DNA from: Patescibacteria group bacterium
GTDB taxonomy: Bacteria > Patescibacteriota > Minisyncoccia > UBA6257 > Colwellbacteraceae
Length of the DNA stretch: 64,000 nucleotides
Assembly (NCBI GenBank): GCA_023380475.1
Contig: JAMCRD010000006.1
Span: 117,996 to 181,995 of the forward strand
Reading direction: 5' to 3'
Shown here in pieces: positions 80 through 60,508 of this stretch. Each line of letters opens with the position of its first letter. The first letter of the stretch is position 1. Below the pieces are notes generated by a model. That model saw only the letters and a program-made list of their open reading frames with translations, made no database searches and was not told the DNA's origin. The translations under genes were made by a program, and so were the position numbers.

Positions 80-1756
80 ATGACGCTTTTCACTGAAATA
101 GCTTTGTCGATAATAATCGCTGCGGCTCTGGGGATAATCGCCCATCTTCTAAAGCAGCCTGCCTTGATAGGTTTCATCGCCGCTGGCCTGATTGTCGGCA
201 GTATTACCCATCTGATCAATATCGATACCAATGTGATCGACAGCTTGTCATCATTGGGAGTGGCGCTACTTCTATTTATTGTCGGCTTGGACCTTGATCT
301 GCGGGAGCTCAAGAACGTAGGAATACACGTTATTATCATCGGTATCGGGCAGGTGCTAGTAACTTTCGGCATCGGCTTTTTACTCAGCCGCGTCCTGGGG
401 TTTGCTGTATTGCCTTCGGTCTACATATCAGCTGCTCTGACCTTCTCCTCGACCATCATCGTCGTTAAGCTTTTGTCGGAGAAGAAGGAGCTAAAGAGTC
501 TCTATGGCCGGATAGTGGTCGGAGTGCTTATTATCCAGGATTTCGTGGCTATGCTGGCCTTGCTTGTCCTATCTTCTGGATTGGCCAACCAGGGATTGGG
601 TCTGATCTCTCTAGGGTTGAGTTTGGCCAAGGGGATAGTTTTGGCTGTGATCTTGATCCTGCTGTCAAAATATCTGCCACGGCTCCTGGACCTCGTCGGT
701 CATTCCCAAGAGTTATTGTATTTATTCAGCATCGCTTGGGCGTTAGGGGTGTCACTACTGGCCGCTTCCCCTTATATCGGACTTTCAGTTGAGGTGGGGG
801 GACTGCTAGCCGGGCTAACCTTAGCCAATTCCGCCGAGCATTTTCAGATCAGCAGTCGGCTGTCTCCTTTGAGAGACTTCTTCGTAATGGTTTTCTTCTT
901 TGGGTTGGGTACGAAAATGGTTATCAGCGCTGGCGCTATTGCCTTGAAACCACTGATCATTTTTGTGCTATTTGTGATGGTGTTCGATCCGCTCATCGTT
1001 TACATCATCATGACCGTCTTGGGCTATCGCTCCCGCACCTCTTTCATGGCCGGTATAACTATGTCTCAGATCTCCGAGTTTAGCCTGGTACTGGTAACGT
1101 TGGGGGCTGAGTTGGGGCACATTACTGCAGCCGAGGGATCACTGGTCATCATCGTCGGCGTGATTACGATGTTCTGTTCGTCTTATCTGATAAGCTACAG
1201 CGATAAGCTTTACGAGTTGCTGAAGCCAGTCTTAAAACTGACGGAGCGCAAGATGGCTCGGCCGGAGGAGACCACACCGCAGGAAAAATTTATGAATCAC
1301 GTTATCTTGATAGGCGCGCACAGGATGGGGCGGACCATCTTGAGAGCGCTAGAATCTTCAGGGGGCAGGGTAGTCACGATCGACTTCGATCCGGTGGTAG
1401 TCAATAGGCTCAGAGCCGAAGGTAAGACGGTGATCTATGGCGACATAACCGACCCGGAGATTCAAGAAGTAGCTGAACTAAAGAAGGCCAGAGTGGTTAT
1501 CTCTACCGCTCCCGATCTTCGCGACAATGAGGCTATTTTGAACGCGGTACGCCGAGAGAATTCTTCAGCCAGAGTGATTCTGACGGCGGACGACGAAAAC
1601 TCGGGGCGCAAGCTTTATTCTATGGGAGCTGACTACGTCATAATGCCGCACCTGATCGGTGGCGAAGAGCTGGCCAGATTTATATTGCGAGATCGTAATT
1701 TTGAGAAGCTGGAGGAAATAAAGCAGCACCACCTCAATTTCTTAGGAAATCTGTAA
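80..1756 (+). CDS. Monovalent cation:proton antiporter (CPA2/Kef-like) with C-terminal RCK/TrkA-N regulatory domain
   Basis: About 12 predicted TM helices in the N-terminal 380 aa; C-terminal Rossmann-like block HVILIGAHRMGRTILRALE...VTIDFDP typical of the TrkA-N/RCK domain. Confidence 0.8.
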   Translation: MTLFTEIALSIIIAAALGIIAHLLKQPALIGFIAAGLIVGSITHLINIDTNVIDSLSSLGVALLLFIVGLDLDLRELKNVGIHVIIIGIGQVLVTFGIGFLLSRVLGFAVLPSVYISAALTFSSTIIVVKLLSEKKELKSLYGRIVVGVLIIQDFVAMLALLVLSSGLANQGLGLISLGLSLAKGIVLAVILILLSKYLPRLLDLVGHSQELLYLFSIAWALGVSLLAASPYIGLSVEVGGLLAGLTLANSAEHFQISSRLSPLRDFFVMVFFFGLGTKMVISAGAIALKPLIIFVLFVMVFDPLIVYIIMTVLGYRSRTSFMAGITMSQISEFSLVLVTLGAELGHITAAEGSLVIIVGVITMFCSSYLISYSDKLYELLKPVLKLTERKMARPEETTPQEKFMNHVILIGAHRMGRTILRALESSGGRVVTIDFDPVVVNRLRAEGKTVIYGDITDPEIQEVAELKKARVVISTAPDLRDNEAILNAVRRENSSARVILTADDENSGRKLYSMGADYVIMPHLIGGEELARFILRDRNFEKLEEIKQHHLNFLGNL

Positions 1757-2401: not shown

Positions 2402-2823
2402 TGGTAGGATTATTTTACACCCAAAGTGCCTCGGGTTACGCGATGCAGCAAGTGCGCTATAATCTAATCATGATCGGCGTGCTCTATGTGGCTACACGCT
2501 TTTTGAATCGAATAGTCCAGTTTATCCGCGATTGGTATGTGGGCGGCTTTAATGCACTAGTCCATCGAGCCTTGCTTATCTTTGGCCGCCTGGACAGATT
2601 TTTGGCCCTTAGGGTTACCTTGCATCACATGTTTGAACCCCTCTATCAGGATCGATCAGTGCTCGGGCGCATTCTGGGTTTAATCTTCCGTAGCGTTCGG
2701 GTGGTTGTGGCTTTGCTTATCTACGGTGTCATTGCCCTCGTCTTTCTCGCGATATACGTCGCTTGGGCAGCCATACCGCTATTATTAATTTATTTCTTGT
2801 TTGCTGACTATGGAATCACCTAA
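2401..2823 (+). CDS. Hypothetical small membrane protein
   Basis: 140-aa ORF with 2-3 hydrophobic helices; overlaps the start of the downstream Clp ATPase gene by 23 nt; no recognisable motifs. Confidence 0.3.
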   Translation: MVGLFYTQSASGYAMQQVRYNLIMIGVLYVATRFLNRIVQFIRDWYVGGFNALVHRALLIFGRLDRFLALRVTLHHMFEPLYQDRSVLGRILGLIFRSVRVVVALLIYGVIALVFLAIYVAWAAIPLLLIYFLFADYGIT

Positions 2824-5308
2824 TTTTTATTTTGAAGACCCGAGGCTGAATATGTCCCTGCCCGCCAGGACGATCATTAACATCGTCATGTGGGTATGGA
2901 CGGTTGTGCTCGTTACGAGTACGGCCATATTCCTACTGTCCGGCGTTGCCTGGATGAGGGCGCTTGGCTTGCTGCTGGTGCTTTATCTGGCTGATCGTTT
3001 CATCCGCCGCAACCGTTCGAACAAGCCCCTGCGCAAGATACCCAAAGATGGGGATATAAACCTAGCAGACTACATGAGTCCGCAGGCGGTAAATTTGATG
3101 CTTTCTGCCTTTAGCCGAGCTCAGGTTTTCGGCGGCCACCCTTATCTGCATCTGGCCAAAGATCTGCTGGTAAGAAGCGAGGTGGACGAAGCGTTGCGCC
3201 GGCTGGATGTTTCCCGCGACGAACTGGGGGCAAAACTGGTCGAGCATCTGAATAAGAGTTTGCCAGTCAAATATAACCGCGAGCAGATAGCTAAATTGGC
3301 CAAGAAACTCACCTTAGCAGCAGCGCTCCAGGCCTCGAATGGGCAGACTGATGAGATAAATCCAGCCGACCTGTTTGCCGGCATATCGGCGGTGGGTGAG
3401 TTGGAAACAGCCAAAGTCTTCGACCTTTTCCAAATTGCCTCAGGCGATCTGGAAAAGGCTCTTATCTTTGGCCGCTTCAAATCCTCCCTGCGTTTTACCC
3501 GCCTACCCTCGAGCCTGGGAGGCTTTGCTAGGAGGGCCTATCGCACGAAGCACCGCTTTATGAACCGAGCTTGGACGGCCCGGCCCACGCCAGCCTTGGA
3601 TAGGGTCAGTTCTGATCTGACGGATATGGCGAGAGCCGCGAAGGTCGGTTTTATGATCGGGCACCACAAAGAATATGAAAGACTAGTCAATATCATTTCC
3701 CGCCCGGACAAGCCCAACGCGCTCTTGATCGGTGACCCAGGTGTCGGGAAAGCAACCGTAATCGACCATTTGGCGTACATGATCAATAGAGACGAAGTTC
3801 CACCGCCCTTGTTCGACAAGCGGTTGGTTGCTCTCGATATGAACGCCTTGCTGGCCGGAGCCGATCAAGGAGAAATTCAACGGCGGATCAAAGTTATCTT
3901 CAGTGAGATAGCGTCAGCCGGCAACATTATTTTGTACATACCGGATATACATAATCTCTCGCGCACTTCGCCTTCACGGGAGCTTTCGGCGGCCAATACC
4001 CTGCTGCCGCTCGTGGTTTCTAACGACTTCCCGACGATAGGCACGACTTACCCAAAGGAATACAAGCAGTTCATCGAGACAGACAGTGTTTTCGCCAGCT
4101 CTTTCCAGGAAATACAGATGGACGAGGTGAGTGAGGACGAGGCCGAGCGCATCATGGTCTACGACAGTGTGATTCTGGAAAAGATTTACAAGGTTAGGAT
4201 AACCTATGCTGCTATCAAGAACGCCGTGCAGCTGGCTAGAAGATACTTCCGCGAAAAACTTCTCCCTTCCTCGGCCGATGATCTGCTTAAAGAAGCTTTG
4301 ACAGAAGCCAATCGCAGCGGCGAGAAGTCGATCGGCAGCGATGATATAGCCCGCGTGGCGGAGAGGCGGGCTAGGGTGCCGATCCATAAGGCCGGTAATC
4401 TAGAGCGGGAGCAGCTGTTGCATCTCGAGGACATAATTCACGAGCAATTTATTGACCAGGAAGTCGCTGTTAAATCGGTGTCGCGGGCCCTACGCGAATA
4501 TCGCAGCGGCTTGGTGCGGAGAGGCGGTCCCATAAACTCATTCTTATTCGTCGGACCGACCGGGGTCGGTAAAACGGAGTTGTCCAAGATACTGGCCCGG
4601 GTTCAGTTCGGCTCAGAAAGTGCGATGATCCGCTTCGATATGTCCGAGTATCAGGATAAAGGTAGCGCCATGCGTTTGATTGGTTCGCCCGACGGCGCGG
4701 TAGCCGGCCTTTTGACCGACGCGGTCATCGAGCATCCTTACAGCTTGGTTTTGTTGGATGAATTTGAGAAAGCCAATCCGGACATTCTCAACTTGTTCCT
4801 GCAGGTTTTTGACGACGGGCGACTTACCGACAACTTGGGGCGGACGGTGAGTTTCGAGAACACGATGATCATCGCCACTTCCAACGCCCACTCCGAGTTT
4901 ATTAAAGACGAATTGGCCCAAGGCAAGAGCATGGAAGAAATAAGCAGCACCTTCAAGAGCAAACTGACCGACGTTTTCCACCCCGAGCTCTTAAACCGTA
5001 TGACAGTCATCGTCTTCCGTAACCTCGGTCCAGCAGATATAGCCAATATTGCCAAGTTTCAAATCGACGAACTGCGCAATACTCTCAAGAATGAGAAGGG
5101 TATAGAACTCAACGTGCCGACGGCGACCCTGACTAAGCTGGCAGAATGGGGTTACGATCCAGTTTTCGGAGCCAGGCCTCTCCGAGAGGTCATATCTGAG
5201 AAACTTCGCGGGCCTCTCTCAGAAATGATTCTGTCGACGGCCGTCGAAAGGGGAGCGGTGATAACAGCTGTGGTAGAGGGAGATAAAATCGGGCTAGATA
5301 TGAAATAG
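2801..5308 (+). CDS. Membrane-anchored Clp/Hsp100-family AAA+ ATPase (ClpC/ClpB-like, two nucleotide-binding domains)
   Basis: Two N-terminal TM helices, then Clp_N-like repeats. NBD1 Walker A is GDPGVGKAT and NBD2 Walker A is GPTGVGKTE. NBD2 Walker B is LVLLDEFEKA. C-terminal sensor-2 is GARPLRE. NBD1 Walker B reads ILYIPDIH, i.e. D but no catalytic E. Confidence 0.8.
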   Translation: MLTMESPNFYFEDPRLNMSLPARTIINIVMWVWTVVLVTSTAIFLLSGVAWMRALGLLLVLYLADRFIRRNRSNKPLRKIPKDGDINLADYMSPQAVNLMLSAFSRAQVFGGHPYLHLAKDLLVRSEVDEALRRLDVSRDELGAKLVEHLNKSLPVKYNREQIAKLAKKLTLAAALQASNGQTDEINPADLFAGISAVGELETAKVFDLFQIASGDLEKALIFGRFKSSLRFTRLPSSLGGFARRAYRTKHRFMNRAWTARPTPALDRVSSDLTDMARAAKVGFMIGHHKEYERLVNIISRPDKPNALLIGDPGVGKATVIDHLAYMINRDEVPPPLFDKRLVALDMNALLAGADQGEIQRRIKVIFSEIASAGNIILYIPDIHNLSRTSPSRELSAANTLLPLVVSNDFPTIGTTYPKEYKQFIETDSVFASSFQEIQMDEVSEDEAERIMVYDSVILEKIYKVRITYAAIKNAVQLARRYFREKLLPSSADDLLKEALTEANRSGEKSIGSDDIARVAERRARVPIHKAGNLEREQLLHLEDIIHEQFIDQEVAVKSVSRALREYRSGLVRRGGPINSFLFVGPTGVGKTELSKILARVQFGSESAMIRFDMSEYQDKGSAMRLIGSPDGAVAGLLTDAVIEHPYSLVLLDEFEKANPDILNLFLQVFDDGRLTDNLGRTVSFENTMIIATSNAHSEFIKDELAQGKSMEEISSTFKSKLTDVFHPELLNRMTVIVFRNLGPADIANIAKFQIDELRNTLKNEKGIELNVPTATLTKLAEWGYDPVFGARPLREVISEKLRGPLSEMILSTAVERGAVITAVVEGDKIGLDMK

Positions 5309-9942: not shown

Positions 9943-10039
9943 CTCCTGCACCCAGATCACTTCTCGAAGTGGGGCACGATAAGCTTCTGGTCAATGTTAA
10001 AAGATATTGCTTTTCCGCATGCAACACATTTCTGTTAGC

Positions 10040-22708: not shown

Positions 22709-22949
22709 ACGGTGGTCGACCTCATTTTTTAGAGACGCCCTATTTGTTTTGAATAAGATGGTCGGCAGGCGTGTATTAGTTGGTGAAAGGCCACAATTAG
22801 CCTTACCAACTAAACATGAAAATAATCTACCATATACGCTGCCCTACCAGAAGCCAACCTACGACTAGCATAGATTGGTGATGTCGGTTCAACCTATGTA
22901 AAGTTTGCGTACATAAAACCGCGGCTAGGCCGCGGTTGTTATGTAAGTG

Positions 22950-23287
22950 TGGAGGCGGAGGGATTGAACCCTCGTCCAGGAAGTTGCTCAAAGGCGCTCT
23001 ACAAGCTTAGTCCTCTTGCGAAGACGTGGTTGCTCCCGGTGGTTTAACCTGCCTTATTGGGAACCTGTTGGGGCAGGCGATTCCGCTGTATGACACCGGT
23101 TTGACCTCTAGCGGAAATCGAGGACCGATGCCCGACTCATGTGGAGCCGAGGCCAGCATTAAGCCAAAGCCAATGCTGGGGCTGCAACTTTATAGTTGGC
23201 AGTTCTTGGTTTGCGACGGGTTTTACGAGCATGTCGCAGCTCGGCTTGCTACCTTTAAGGGTGCTCCCTGTCGAAGCTTGCGCCCCC
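22950..23287 (-). ncRNA. ssrA: tmRNA (SsrA)
   Basis: Minus-strand 5' end GGGGGCGCAAGC pairs with 3' end ...GGUUCAAUCCCUCCGCCUCC-A (tRNA-like T-arm and acceptor). Internal reading frame GCC AAC UAU AAA GUU GCA GCC CCA GCA UUG GCU UUG GCU UAA encodes the tag (A)NYKVAAPALALA. Located immediately downstream of smpB. Confidence 0.85.
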
Positions 23288-23725
23288 ATTACGTATCTCT
23301 TTCTGAAATTCTTGCTTTTTAAGAAACTCTCGCTTGTCAGCCTTATTTCTCGGGCGAACCAGGCCTATCTCTAGTTTGACTATGCCCAGTTTGCCGCGGG
23401 CAGTATAGATTCTGAGCGGGATAGCAGTCAACCCCTTCTCTTTTATCCGTCCTAACAGGAGGTTTATCTCTTTGCGGTTTAACAGTAGTCTGCGATCACG
23501 CTGCGGTTTATAGCTGGCAGGGGTATTCTTGGGCTGATAAGGTGGGACGTCAGCTCCAATAAGCCAGGCCTCGCCACCCCTCAGGGCGACATGGGCGCCG
23601 GCGATGTTAACCCGGCCCGACTTTATGGCTTTCACCTCGTGGCCGTGCAATTCGATACCCGCCTCAAACTTTTCCAACACGGCGTAATCGTGATAAGCCC
23701 TGCGATTGGCTGCCAATTCACTCAT
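23255..23725 (-). CDS. smpB: SsrA-binding protein SmpB
   Basis: MSELAANRRAYHDYAVLEKFEAGIELHGHEVKAIKSGRVNIAGAHVAL... canonical SmpB sequence; 3' end overlaps the tmRNA 5' end by ~33 nt. Confidence 0.9.
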   Translation of the reverse strand: MSELAANRRAYHDYAVLEKFEAGIELHGHEVKAIKSGRVNIAGAHVALRGGEAWLIGADVPPYQPKNTPASYKPQRDRRLLLNRKEINLLLGRIKEKGLTAIPLRIYTARGKLGIVKLEIGLVRPRNKADKREFLKKQEFQKEIRNGGASFDREHP

Positions 23726-32534: not shown

Positions 32535-32560
32535 TTTTATTTGATTTTATTGTTTATTAG

Positions 32561-32643
32561 TGCCGAGGGCGGGACTTGAACCCGCAAGCCTTGAAGGCAC
32601 ACGGCCCTGAACCGTGCATGTTTGCCAGTTTCATCACCTCGGC
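32561..32643 (-). tRNA. tRNA-Leu (anticodon CAG), class II with long variable arm
   Basis: Minus-strand GCCGAGG acceptor / CCUCGGC-A, anticodon loop UUCAGGG (CAG), variable-arm hairpin GCCUUCAAGGC, T-arm GCGGGUUCAAGUCCCGC. Confidence 0.85.
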
Positions 32644-33287
32644 GATGTAACAAACTCTTTTGCTATAAAGAACTTTCTTTCTAAACGCGGTACGTTTGGT
32701 TTGTAGTAAATGCGATTCAGCAGGGCGATCGAGTCTTGTTTGCTGAATGTTAACCTGAATGTTACCGGATCATTTCTAATAAAGCCCCTTTTACCAGTTG
32801 CACTCGTAATCTTTCTCCTAAGCCACAAGATGTGCGGCAGTGAAGCAGACATAAAAGTGGTGTAAAGGCGTAGACTTTTTGGATAAACCGGATCGTTATA
32901 TTTCATGATACAACCATCTCCATCCAAATGTCCTCTGAGAAAATCAAAGAAGAGATCATTGGGTATCTTTAATGCCCCAAGACGTTTTGATTTATTGGGC
33001 ATTAAACCAACATCGAGAAGCCATCGGTAAAGTGTGACATTGCCAAATTGGATGTGAAACGAACTTAATCTGTTAGTGTAACTACTCCGCTTTCTAACTA
33101 TTCCGTTTTTTAAATTAAGGCACTTTTTAAAAGTCTCCATTTGATCCTTATCATTCGAAGTAAAGTCGAAGTGACGGCCATCCGGAGACAAACAGCCGTC
33201 TGTGGTGATAAGTCCCACGGCGTATGCAATCTGGGGTGACCAAGCAATTTCTTTTTGTCTAGGATACATTGACTTACTTGCGTCCAT
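32634..33287 (-). CDS. Free-standing LAGLIDADG homing endonuclease (two-motif, single-chain type)
   Basis: AYAVGLITTDGCL (motif 1) and FLRGHLDGDGCI (motif 2); wedged between pgi and tRNA-Leu, overlapping the tRNA 5' end by ~10 nt. Confidence 0.75.
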   Translation of the reverse strand: MDASKSMYPRQKEIAWSPQIAYAVGLITTDGCLSPDGRHFDFTSNDKDQMETFKKCLNLKNGIVRKRSSYTNRLSSFHIQFGNVTLYRWLLDVGLMPNKSKRLGALKIPNDLFFDFLRGHLDGDGCIMKYNDPVYPKSLRLYTTFMSASLPHILWLRRKITSATGKRGFIRNDPVTFRLTFSKQDSIALLNRIYYKPNVPRLERKFFIAKEFVTSPR

Positions 33288-54889: not shown

Positions 54890-56314
54890 ATGAGGCTGAA
54901 ACCTCGTACAATTTATGACGTTAAACCCAGTGGCGCGGATGTTTTCGTCCCAAGTAAGCGGATAGTCAATCTCAGCCGGGTTAAATATTTTGCGGCGCAC
55001 GGACAGCGTAAGCTTGTTGTGTTGCTCGCGGTTATCTTGCCGCTCCTGTTCCTTACCTCTGTGGGCGCCCCGGTTACGACTGGTAGTACCTCCGCTACAG
55101 CCGGTTCGACTGATGTCCAGCGTCAGGCTCTCGAAGCTCAGTTGCAGCAGCTTGAAAGCCAGATTGCAGGTTACGAAACAACGATTTCCAATTATCAAAA
55201 GCAGGGTAAAAGCTTGACCACGGAGATAAATACGCTAAATGCCAACATCGCCAAGATCAACCTGCAGATAAGGGCTATAAATATTTCTTTGGATGAATTG
55301 AACGGAGAAATTAAAGATACGAATTCACAGATAAGCGTGACGGAGAGCAACATCAATGCCGGCAAACTCAGTTTGGCCAGTGCCTTGCAGGATATGTATG
55401 AGAATGACAACCAGAATTTGGCTGAGATTCTTTTGGCCCACCCGCAACTGTCTGATTTCTTCGACAACGTGAACAACCTTGATCTACTGCAAGAAAACGT
55501 CCAGGTAGCCATCACCAACCTTGCGGCGATGGAAACCACTCTTCAGAATCAGAAGCAGGAATTGGGTGTAAAGTTGTCTGATGAAGCGACACTTAAGGCC
55601 TATCAAGCCCAACAAGCTACAGCTCTGCGGTCGACTAAGACAGACAAAACAAGCCTTCTCGCTGAGACCAAGGGTCAAGAAGCGGCCTATCAGAAAATAC
55701 TGGCTACCACTCAACAGACAGCTGCCCAGATCCGTAACCAGATATTCCAGTTGTTGGGCGGCGGCACGCTAACTTTCGAAAAGGCTTATGAGTATGCAGC
55801 AGCCGCTCAAAGCGCGACCGGAGTCAGGGCCGCTTTCTTGCTAGCCGTCTTGGATCGCGAGTCGGCTTTGGGACAGAACGTCGGCCAGTGCAGCTACAAA
55901 ACGGCCATGAGCCCCAGCAACATACCAATATTTCTGCAGATAACCAAAGCCCTCGGACTAGATCCGAACGAAATGTTAGTTTCCTGCCCCAACGCTGACG
56001 GAGTATACGGCGGTGCCATGGGTCCGGCGCAATTTATACCGTCGACGTGGAAACTTTATACCAGTGCTGTTTCCAATATCACAGGCAACAACCCGGCGTC
56101 GCCGTGGAGCGATGCGGATGCTTTTACGGCGGCGGCACTGTATCTCAAAGACGCTGGTGCAGCTACCAATGAGCAGAAAGCCGCGGCAGAGTATTACTGT
56201 GGGTCAAACTGGAACCGCTACGTCTGCACCCAAGTTTACGGTCTGAACGTTATTGAGCAAGCCGATCAATTCCAGCAGGATATAAACGTGCTGAACAGTA
56301 ATTCGACAGGCTAG
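54890..56314 (+). CDS. Secreted coiled-coil protein with C-terminal lytic transglycosylase (MltB/Slt35-like) domain
   Basis: N-terminal anchor, ~250-aa coiled-coil (QLQQLESQIAGYETTISNYQKQGKSL...), then LAVLDRESALGQNVGQCSY (catalytic E-S) and GGAMGPAQFIPSTW (G-x-M-G-x-x-Q-F-x-P-S-T-W signature). Confidence 0.7.
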   Translation: MRLKPRTIYDVKPSGADVFVPSKRIVNLSRVKYFAAHGQRKLVVLLAVILPLLFLTSVGAPVTTGSTSATAGSTDVQRQALEAQLQQLESQIAGYETTISNYQKQGKSLTTEINTLNANIAKINLQIRAINISLDELNGEIKDTNSQISVTESNINAGKLSLASALQDMYENDNQNLAEILLAHPQLSDFFDNVNNLDLLQENVQVAITNLAAMETTLQNQKQELGVKLSDEATLKAYQAQQATALRSTKTDKTSLLAETKGQEAAYQKILATTQQTAAQIRNQIFQLLGGGTLTFEKAYEYAAAAQSATGVRAAFLLAVLDRESALGQNVGQCSYKTAMSPSNIPIFLQITKALGLDPNEMLVSCPNADGVYGGAMGPAQFIPSTWKLYTSAVSNITGNNPASPWSDADAFTAAALYLKDAGAATNEQKAAAEYYCGSNWNRYVCTQVYGLNVIEQADQFQQDINVLNSNSTG

Positions 56315-56321
56315 GCATTAG

Positions 56322-57050
56322 TTAGGCGGTCGTCTTCCTGAAGGCCTTAACTATGCCGTCTATGTTGCCTTCCATAATATCCTCGATGTTGTGCCATTTC
56401 TTGCCGATACGGTGATCGGTTATCCGGTCGTCCGGAAAGTTATAGGTGCGTATTTTCTCAGAACGGTCAGCCGAGCCTATTTGTTCTCGGCGCAGGTCAG
56501 TGACAGAGCCGGCAGTTTTCAGCTGCTCGGCTTCGTAGAGTTTAGCGCGCAGAATTTCCAAAGCTTTCTCACGGTTGGCGTGTTGCGATCGCTCGGAGCG
56601 CGAGCTCACTACTATCCCCGTGGGTTTGTGCAGGATTCTGACTGCCGTTTCCACTTTGTTTACGTTTTGTCCGCCCGGCCCACCGGCCCGCGAGAAGGTG
56701 ACTTCGATATCGTTCGGACTGATGTTAACTTCCTGAGCTTCGACCATGGGCAGTACGGCCACCGAGGCAGTGGAGGTATGAACTCGACCGTTCTTTTCGG
56801 TCTTGGGGATGCGTTGAACGCGGTGAACCCCTGACTCCTGCTTGAGGTCGTCGTAGACTCCTTCACCACTCACCTCGGATATAAAAGTTTTATATCCGCC
56901 AATCGTGCCTTCATTGGTATCAAGTACTGCAAAGCCCCAGCCGCGTTTGGCGGCGTAGCGCTGATACATACGGGCTAGGTCACCGGCGAAAAGAGAGGCC
57001 TCGTCGCCGCCGGCTCCAGCTCTTATTTCCAAAATTATTTTATTGGTCAT
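56322..57050 (-). CDS. prfA: Peptide chain release factor 1, N-terminally truncated (lacks domain 1)
   Basis: Starts directly at the domain-2 sequence [20 protein letters not shown]; tripeptide-anticodon region [13 protein letters not shown] (PxT type); GGQ motif ([13 protein letters not shown]). Only 42 nt separate it from rpmE upstream. Confidence 0.8.
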
Positions 57051-57092
57051 CAGTTCCGTGACCGCTAACGATTAGACGATTGCGAAACGAGT

Positions 57093-57365
57093 CTACTTAT
57101 GTTTCTTGGCTTTGGCCTTTGCGGTCGCGCGCCTGATTTTCTTTTTGGGTGCCGGTTCAGCTACAGCCTTGGAACGTCTTGAGGCGAAACGTTCGATTCT
57201 TCCAGCAGTGTCGATCAGTTTCTCCTTACCGGTATAAAAAGGATGGCAGTTGCTGCATATTTCAACCTGAAGTTCTGACTTAGTCGAGCCGACGGTGAAT
57301 TCATAGCCGCAAGCACAGCGAACCTTGGCTTTAGGATAGTAGGTTGGATGTATTTTCTCCTTCAT
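57093..57365 (-). CDS. rpmE: 50S ribosomal protein L31 with Lys/Ala-rich C-terminal extension
   Basis: [23 protein letters not shown]...[11 protein letters not shown] (zinc-ribbon type A L31). Confidence 0.9.
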
Positions 57366-57424: not shown

Positions 57425-57584
57425 TGTCTCTGCTCAACGATGGTGACAGATCGTTTACAAGTGAACAAATAAGTAACCAAATTGGTAAAGGTTCAAAACA
57501 ATAGATAATAAATAGAGAATTTTTTAGTTGTCCCAAAGCACTTTACTTTCGACCGGCCCAGCATGGGTGGTCGAAAGTTTTTTT

Positions 57585-59928
<2,344 letters not shown>

Positions 59929-60118: not shown

Positions 60119-60508
60119 ATGGCGTTAAACAAGACAGTGATGGTGGTCGAAGACGACCAATTCTTGTCGCAATTGTTGAGCAACCGTTTAGGCCGCGAAG
60201 GCCTGAATGTTATTCGTGCTGGCGATGGGCAGGAAGCCTTGGATCTGCTTGGGGCCAACCAGCCGGATCTGATCCTGTTGGATTTGATTCTCCCTAAGAA
60301 GTCAGGTTTCGAGGTGATGGAGGAGATACAAAAGAATCCCCTGCTTAAGAATGCGCCGATCGTTATAATCTCCAACTTGGGGCAGGACGATGATATATCC
60401 CGCGGTAAGCAGTTGGGAGCTATCGAGTACTATGTTAAGGCAAAGATATCTATTGAAGATCTGGTAAGTAAGATCGAGCAGCTTCTAACCTCAAGCCGTG
60501 CGGCTTGA
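60119..60508 (+). CDS. Stand-alone response-regulator receiver domain protein (CheY-like)
   Basis: VMVVEDDQFL...DLILLDLILPKKSGFEV...PIVIISNLGQ (phospho-acceptor Asp in LLDL, T/S and K positions conserved); a TAGTAT -10-like box 9 nt upstream of the ATG. Confidence 0.8.
   Translation: MALNKTVMVVEDDQFLSQLLSNRLGREGLNVIRAGDGQEALDLLGANQPDLILLDLILPKKSGFEVMEEIQKNPLLKNAPIVIISNLGQDDDISRGKQLGAIEYYVKAKISIEDLVSKIEQLLTSSRAA

Follow-up and report, generated by a model that had tools for sequence, protein, structure and literature searches.

Can a bacterial release factor that lacks its entire N-terminal domain be the cell's ordinary RF1? The question is raised by a prfA gene in a 64,000-nucleotide stretch of a Patescibacteria group genome (GCA_023380475.1, contig JAMCRD010000006.1, positions 117,996 to 181,995), referred to below as the window, whose product was described in an earlier note as a naturally minimal RF1 without domain 1. 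Full-text literature searches found no description of a truncated RF1 in CPR bacteria, and the form is absent from a review of release factor evolution (PMC6514570).

According to Baranov et al. (2006, PMC1586002), whose account cites Mora et al. (2003), neither recognition of the stop codon nor hydrolysis requires domain 1, and a truncated RF1 is functional in vivo; the same article records that prfC is missing from small genomes, and a reviewer comment in it states that E. coli release factors without domain 1 support only slow growth. More recently, Graf et al. (2018, PMC6076264) saw the C-terminal domain of bL12 form a bridge from domain I of RF1 to uL11, a contact that helps bL12 to deliver RF1; they saw no contact between RF1 and RF3, and they state that RF1 without domain I is recycled by RF3. 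On the ribosome domain 1 is mobile, its connection to domain 2 being a flexible linker (PMC6076264). Thus, of the background offered in the earlier note, the contact of domain 1 with the stalk (bL12/uL11) and its dispensability for release stand, but its role in RF3-dependent recycling is contested (PMC6076264). Loss of the domain alone does not imply loss of RF3.

An RF1 orthologue that begins at domain 2

The prfA product is orthologous to RF1 and starts with the first beta-strand of domain 2. Pfam PCRF matched only over profile positions 100-194 of 194, with positions 1-99 absent, and the Pfam RF-1 (GGQ) domain matched over positions 3-116 of 116 and is complete. RF1 is the best-scoring class I release factor family, with 369.7 bits to NF001859 (NCBIfam RF1, model positions 104-340 of 347) and 358 bits to TIGR00019 (NCBIfam RF1, model positions 112-348 of 361), compared with 242.5 bits for RF2, 83.4 for PrfH and 54.5 for ArfB; the E-values, 1e-107 to 1e-110, exclude a chance match. 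The protein is not full-length, and both RF1 scores lie below the equivalog cut-offs (400 for NF001859, 423.25 for TIGR00019) because a third of the model is missing, which is why it carries the NCBI name 'PCRF domain-containing protein' and nothing more specific. Alignment to solved structures (~1e-75 to 1e-77) covers residues 111-342 of E. coli RF1 and 86-318 of T. maritima RF1, so that the start near residue 110 of E. coli RF1 proposed in the earlier note agrees with the structural alignment.

The PxT tripeptide and the GGQ motif named in that note are both present, as are the Q and the E/H-T residues flanking PxT, the G..E motif of the alpha5 tip, the GGQ-bearing domain 3 and the C-terminal domain 4 (Table 1). 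In an alignment of 45 short homologues, Q79, P82, T84, E85, H91, T92, RAGAGGDEA and GGQ are invariant, and so, within the alpha5-tip segment, are G12, G14, G15, E17 and A18, while the residue between P82 and T84 is free to vary (K, A, E, S, V or M), as it is in ordinary RF1. The alpha5-tip segment, GAGGDEA, lies only 11 residues from the N-terminus of the short protein; from RF1-ribosome structures, we take this segment to be the one that reads the first base of the stop codon.

An AlphaFold2 model built from the 45 homologues was of moderate overall confidence (pLDDT 72.6, pTM 0.70, with residues 123-132 and 181-209 below pLDDT 50) and matched RF1 and RF2 structures over its full length (236-242 columns). 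The best structural fits (TM 0.81-0.84) were to 1rq0, 1zbt, 2b3t and 6orl, which are compact free or pre-accommodated forms.

Table 1. The prfA locus (positions in the window) and the N-terminal lengths of the RF1 sequences compared
Feature	Position or sequences	Strand	Remarks
prfA, domains 2-4 only, without domain 1	56322-57050	-	242 aa, ATG start
GAGGDEA, residues 12-18, start of helix alpha5 of domain 2	56997-57017	-	aligns with RAGTGGDEA of E. coli RF1
PKT, residues 82-84, RF1-type PxT decoding tripeptide	56799-56807	-	
GGQ, residues 126-128, domain 3 catalytic motif	56667-56675	-	complete Pfam RF-1 domain
rpmE-prfA spacer, 42 nt	57051-57092	-	in-frame TAA at 57072-57074
rpmE, ribosomal protein L31, 90 aa	57093-57365	-	Pfam Ribosomal_L31, 9.9e-29
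Sigma-70-like promoter match before rpmE: GGGACA, 18-nt spacer, TATTAT	57505-57534	-	consensus match, weak
RF1 N-terminus of 102-115 aa, full domain 1	L014, L017, L020, all non-CPR sequences		
RF1 N-terminus of 73-82 aa	most Paceibacteria (group B)		internal ~36-aa deletion, first half of helical domain
RF1 N-terminus of 51 aa	L073		
RF1 N-terminus of 21-30 aa	L015, L011, P0128		
RF1 N-terminus of 2-7 aa	window, L002-L010, P0122, P0125		

A PrfH- or ArfB-like protein in place of RF1, a possibility raised in the earlier note, was looked for and not found, the RF1 profiles scoring far above both. The PrfH score is well short of that family's cut-off of 166.65, PDB PrfH chains aligned at 5e-15 and 1.7e-11 compared with 1e-77 for RF1, and the gene context is not that of PrfH either, since the upstream gene is rpmE (or response regulators in L286, a related contig) and there is no rtcB neighbour. 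ArfB (NF006718, cut-off 100) aligned only over residues 106-140, and the protein possesses domains 2 and 4. RF2 (TIGR00020, cut-off 370) was rejected on its score and on the tripeptide, which is PKT and not SPF.

The domain cannot be supplied from the DNA immediately upstream. The TAG stop of rpmE (57093-57095) lies directly upstream of prfA on the same strand, and the TAA in the spacer stands seven codons ahead of the prfA ATG, so that the upstream open frame amounts to 7 codons; with a 42-nt spacer, an in-frame TAA and an abutting rpmE, there is no coding room for domain 1. The length of the open reading frame, the spacer with its in-frame stop and the conclusion that domain 1 is not encodable upstream are therefore all as the earlier note had them, to which we add the strand (minus), which it did not give. 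The same three features rule out an upstream frameshift or an alternative start. No promoter-like site was found when the rpmE-prfA spacer was scanned; from this arrangement, co-transcription of rpmE and prfA is plausible. The pair is divergent from the 16S rRNA gene, and on its other side a convergent gene (54890-56314), coding for a coiled-coil protein with an SLT_2 domain, has its stop 7 nt from the end of prfA.

Several other elements of the window were recorded. The 16S rRNA gene (57579-59875, plus strand) appears to be split close to its 3' end: the Rfam hit above the gathering threshold stops at 59060, and 59416-59530 contains a separate SSU segment (model positions 1393-1491), with weak group II intron-like matches before it (59096-59403) and a clear group I intron after it (59523-59875, 75.9 bits). 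No 23S rRNA gene was found after the 16S gene, and a response-regulator gene starts at 60119. A LAGLIDADG-like open reading frame of 217 aa (32634-33287, minus strand) with a TGA stop is not located in an rRNA intron; it abuts and slightly overlaps tRNA-Leu(CAG) (32560-32643). A tmRNA gene (tag peptide ANYKVAAPALALA) adjoins smpB at 22947-23725 on the minus strand, and trans-translation rescue is therefore present in the organism.

Distribution and stepwise shortening of the N-terminus

The short RF1 is the standard form in a large clade of Paceibacteria (Minisyncoccia), its members carrying the labels Lipton-, Jorgensen- and Colwellbacteria. The best 120 database homologues (77-100% identity) are 239-253 aa long with two exceptions, and their named sources are the Patescibacteria group, Paceibacterota, Minisyncoccia, Liptonbacteria and Colwellbacteria. 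In the eleven closest GTDB genomes, compared as contigs with one genome per species, the genes code for 239-270 aa at 60-78% identity. The truncation is thus lineage-wide, which the earlier note had proposed to check by aligning related genomes. Elsewhere in the GTDB contigs, RF1 of other Patescibacteria measures 292-349 aa, and the hits outside CPR (Bacteroidota, Cyanobacteria, Melainabacteria, Ignavibacteria and Elusimicrobia) all measure 352-371 aa from the first ATG, with a few over-called starts (for example in L025 and L063) giving up to 387 aa.

Entries departing from these lengths were inspected individually. Two proteins that might have passed as longer RF1s, P0024 (323 aa) and P0116 (286 aa), carry extensions unlike domain 1 and are mis-called starts. 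P0130, P0147, P0181, P0218 and others, which open with RF1 domains 2-4 and have additional C-terminal sequence, look like contig-edge fragments or fusions to PrmC or ABC sequences, and P0121 (477 aa) and P0123 (481 aa) are internally duplicated assemblies.

Purifying selection on the short RF1 is strong. In comparisons of the window gene with five relatives, pS is 0.76-0.85, which amounts to saturation, and pN is low at 0.15-0.22; 108 columns are invariant across the 45 sequences aligned. An identical prfA is found on an independent Logan contig (L001). Another contig, GCA_023476555.1 JAMCXC010000004.1 (10001-21677), codes for a protein identical to that of the first gene of the window (80-1756) and has the same gene order; judging from this match it is a close relative or the same population, assembled independently.

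Alignment of the N-termini together with a neighbour-joining tree of domains 2-4 was used to define stages of erosion, which run from a full domain 1 to next to nothing (Table 1). One of the strongly shortened sequences, L015, of which 23 aa are left at the N-terminus, nests within group B and outside the window clade, and at least this reduction looks independent of that in the window clade. Whether the N-terminus is long or short, rpmE is the gene immediately upstream in most of the CPR and cyanobacterial loci, and the gap between the two genes ranges from -11 to ~+150 nt. The arrangement extends to the lineage of P0125, 58% identical, in which rpmE overlaps a 242-aa prfA by 4 nt and a convergent SLT-domain gene follows prfA as in the window; in some genomes of the short clade prfA is away from rpmE and stands alone (L286). 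Because shrinkage took place in situ beside rpmE, it is to be attributed to 5' deletions inside prfA and not to fission of the gene.

From the profile scores, the invariant decoding residues and the position of the gene, we consider it highly probable that the window gene is the organism's ordinary, functional RF1, with domain 1 lost by 5' deletions within prfA and the rpmE-prfA arrangement kept. The reading in the earlier note, a natural RF1 without domain 1, is upheld by the RF1 profile scores and by the lineage-wide occurrence of the short form.

No substitutions specific to the short clade that might compensate for the loss of domain 1 were seen in the alignment. KKSWHN is common to all CPR RF1 sequences examined, all of which come from the Paceibacteria-related branch, and GPGGQ is present also in the full-length L017 and L020. 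Given the slow growth noted for E. coli with release factors that lack domain 1, some compensation may nevertheless exist in the short clade.

Stop codons, RF2 and competing explanations

TGA is a stop codon in the window, as the earlier note had maintained: 14 of the 68 table-11 open reading frames terminate at TGA, and translation with table 11 leaves long conserved genes intact. As the decoding residues are those of a canonical RF1, an RF2 should therefore lie elsewhere in the genome. The earlier note had left the choice between an RF2 encoded elsewhere and an RF1 of different specificity; the former is to be expected, and the latter is unlikely in view of the canonical decoding residues. 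No RF2 was found in the window, in the ~10 kb to its left or the ~6 kb to its right, or in ~30 CPR RF1 loci, and a scan of IMG/VR for the RF2 of the lineage returned only phage release factors. A search of metagenomes with a DNA pattern aimed at a short RF2 returned 112 RF2 genes, none of them clearly short: an open frame of ~100 codons or longer precedes nearly all of them, and the few exceptions lie mostly at contig edges. Two of the 112 are from CPR (L199, WWE3; L177, Dojkabacteria/WS6), and their 240 closest relatives measure 335-361 aa and keep domain 1, a few shorter ones being likely fragments or mis-called starts. Across these sequences, RF2 from three other CPR classes retains domain 1, which measures ~95 aa in WWE3 and Microgenomatia. 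In E. coli, RF2 domain 1 is ~125 aa long.

In WWE3, Microgenomatia, CPR1 and Dojkabacteria the RF2 genes (L199 5157-6167; P0290-P0409; P0410-P0529) appear as single, continuous open reading frames of 335-361 aa with a Met start, in which nothing pointed to the +1 programmed frameshift that is usual for RF2. They have in common a CPR-type motif, HSGQGGTEA ... R(Q/I)SP(F/Y)NA..LRQT(S/T)FA, with SPY instead of SPF in several Dojkabacteria. In the WWE3 contig (L199 2564-9474) the gene order is a membrane-anchored AAA+ protein (ClpB-like), prfB, ftsE, ftsX and a coiled-coil M23 peptidase. In the window, the gene after the AAA+ homologue (2801-5308; 41% identical over 580 aa) is of the PolX/PHP type and not prfB.

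The phage contigs in IMG/VR contain release factors of their own. Ten of them (L250, L251, L254, L257, L258, L262-L264, L266, L275) code for RF1-like proteins of ~225 aa opening at domain 2 (for example MEQIIIEIRAAEGG), in which GGQ is present and of which several carry a PxT-like tripeptide (PPT, PST, PDT); the match starts near position 10001 in most contigs. An in-frame stop is met near codon 50 under table 11 in all four of the phage release factors translated (L250, L254, L257, L263), which suggests that these phages may use a reassigned stop codon. PrfH-like phage genes of ~195-204 aa are separate from these, as in L278.

A short RF1 that reads UGA as well, leaving the cell no need of RF2, would account for TGA stops in a lineage whose DNA, as far as it was reached, contains no RF2. 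We regard this as extremely unlikely: the canonical RF1 set (Q79, P82-x-T84, E85, H91, T92) is invariant, other CPR classes have a normal RF2, and the DNA examined amounts to ~10% of a genome of ~0.8 Mb, so that absence of an RF2 from it is expected by chance. The probability that the gene is an artefact or a pseudogene, whether by mis-assembly, a 5'-truncated call or decay, appears to us negligible. Metagenome databases do contain many 5'-truncated RF1 fragments and frame-fused calls (P0130, P0147, P0181, P0218; P0121, P0123), but prfA is internal to a 212-kb contig with a complete gene upstream, its sequence recurs identically in a second assembly, hundreds of independent homologues share the same start, and the protein is strongly conserved over saturated synonymous sites.

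Two further explanations concern what might be encoded beyond the DNA at hand, which comprises the 64 kb of the window and ~16 kb beyond its ends. The 242-aa protein could be one half of a split factor, joined in trans by a domain 1 from a separate gene elsewhere, and the flexible attachment and mobility of domain 1 on the ribosome (PMC6076264) would be compatible with such an assembly. Two HMMs of domain 1 were built, the first on CPR sequences and the second on all full-length ones; both detected all the positive controls (E 2e-28 to 1e-3 for the CPR HMM, 3e-38 to 2e-9 for the all-sequence HMM), and the 51-aa remnant in L073 was detected at E = 3e-5. Neither found a match in the 64-kb window or in the ~10 kb around 14 other short or partly reduced genes, and phmmer with E. 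coli RF1 and its domain 1 against the six-frame translation of the window returned only the known open reading frame. The search for a nearby domain-1 fragment that the earlier note had envisaged was thus negative in the window and beside the 14 other loci. Together with the gradual in-place shrinkage (76, 51, 21-30 and 2-7 aa) abutting rpmE, which is the signature of erosion, these results make a split gene very unlikely. Alternatively, the short copy could be a specialised paralogue acting as a rescue or regulatory factor next to a full-length RF1 encoded elsewhere, in keeping with the known relatives without domain 1, PrfH and ArfB/ICT1, which are rescue factors. Against this, the protein gives RF1-type scores and keeps every residue that reads the stop codon; it holds the ancestral rpmE-prfA position occupied by full-length RF1 in other CPR and in cyanobacteria; and the short proteins are placed in the RF1 tree where the orthologue of the lineage is expected. 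In addition, no second RF-like gene was found in ~30 CPR loci around RF1, and no rtcB neighbour is present. A paralogue of this kind is, in our judgement, quite improbable.

Termination without domain 1 and comparison with known release factors

If the short protein is the ordinary RF1 of the cell, domains 2 and 4 would anchor it in the A site, and recognition of the stop codon would let domain 3 swing into the peptidyl-transferase centre as in full-length RF1. The contact of domain 1 with uL11 and the bL12 C-terminal domain at the base of the stalk would not be made. Recruitment might then proceed by diffusion and release by spontaneous or rotation-driven dissociation, with slower recruitment or turnover as a likely consequence, a cost that slow-growing, genome-reduced episymbionts may tolerate. 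Termination at UGA would fall to an RF2 whose gene lies in another part of the genome.

Domain 1, the least understood part of class I release factors, appears to be dispensable in nature. Older work ties it to RF3, and newer cryo-EM ties it to delivery by bL12/uL11 (PMC6076264). It is conceivable, if on balance doubtful, that the repeated erosion of domain 1 in Paceibacteria is a sign that termination at the GTPase-associated centre has been rewired throughout the lineage, through loss of RF3, an altered uL11-bL12 stalk or both. Were this so, termination at UAA and UAG would be independent of the stalk and of RF3, the domain 1 of RF2 would be kept for a separate reason or would also be in the course of being trimmed, and the clade would constitute a natural experiment isolating the role of domain 1. 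The loss of domain 1 can be compared with changes in prfC, rplK and rplL or with growth rate, and the relatives with ~76, 51, 21-30 and no residues provide a ready deletion series for biochemistry and cryo-EM. On the practical side, pipelines for markers or genome completeness that rely on TIGR00019 probably record prfA as absent from members of the short clade.

Compared with canonical RF1 (E. coli, T. thermophilus, T. maritima), the window protein is 46-49% identical over domains 2-4 to solved RF1 structures (foldseek) and shares the PxT tripeptide, GGQ, the alpha5 tip and the switch-loop region, and its position behind rpmE is that of prfA in other CPR and cyanobacteria; however, canonical RF1 has a helical domain 1 of ~105 residues that the window RF1 lacks. 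The nearest relatives keeping an N-terminal domain are the RF1 proteins of group B (for example RAAC4_OD1_1 in L013, and those of Nomura-, Kaiser- and Taylorbacteria), which have in common with the window clade the motif DHRIK(K/E/Q)SW(H/S)N and the adjacency to rpmE, but retain a reduced domain 1 of ~73-82 aa where the window clade has none. PrfH (RF-H; TIGR03072) is, like the window protein, a natural class I homologue without domain 1 in which GGQ is kept; the differences are the divergent decoding region of PrfH, its length of ~200 aa and the rtcB-like gene that always precedes it. ArfB/ICT1 (mL62) shares the GGQ domain with the window RF1 but is without the codon-reading domains 2 and 4, and has a basic C-terminal tail and a length of ~140 aa. 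The closest parallel in architecture, with the same domains 2-4, is provided by the engineered truncations of E. coli RF1 and RF2 (Mora, Zavialov, Ehrenberg and Buckingham 2003, as described in PMC1586002 and PMC6514570), which according to these accounts retain codon-dependent release activity in vitro and function in vivo. Those truncations are laboratory constructs in a host with RF3 and a full stalk, whereas the form in the window is natural, fixed and ancient across its clade, and thus represents the counterpart of the laboratory truncation in nature, together with the evolutionary series leading to it.
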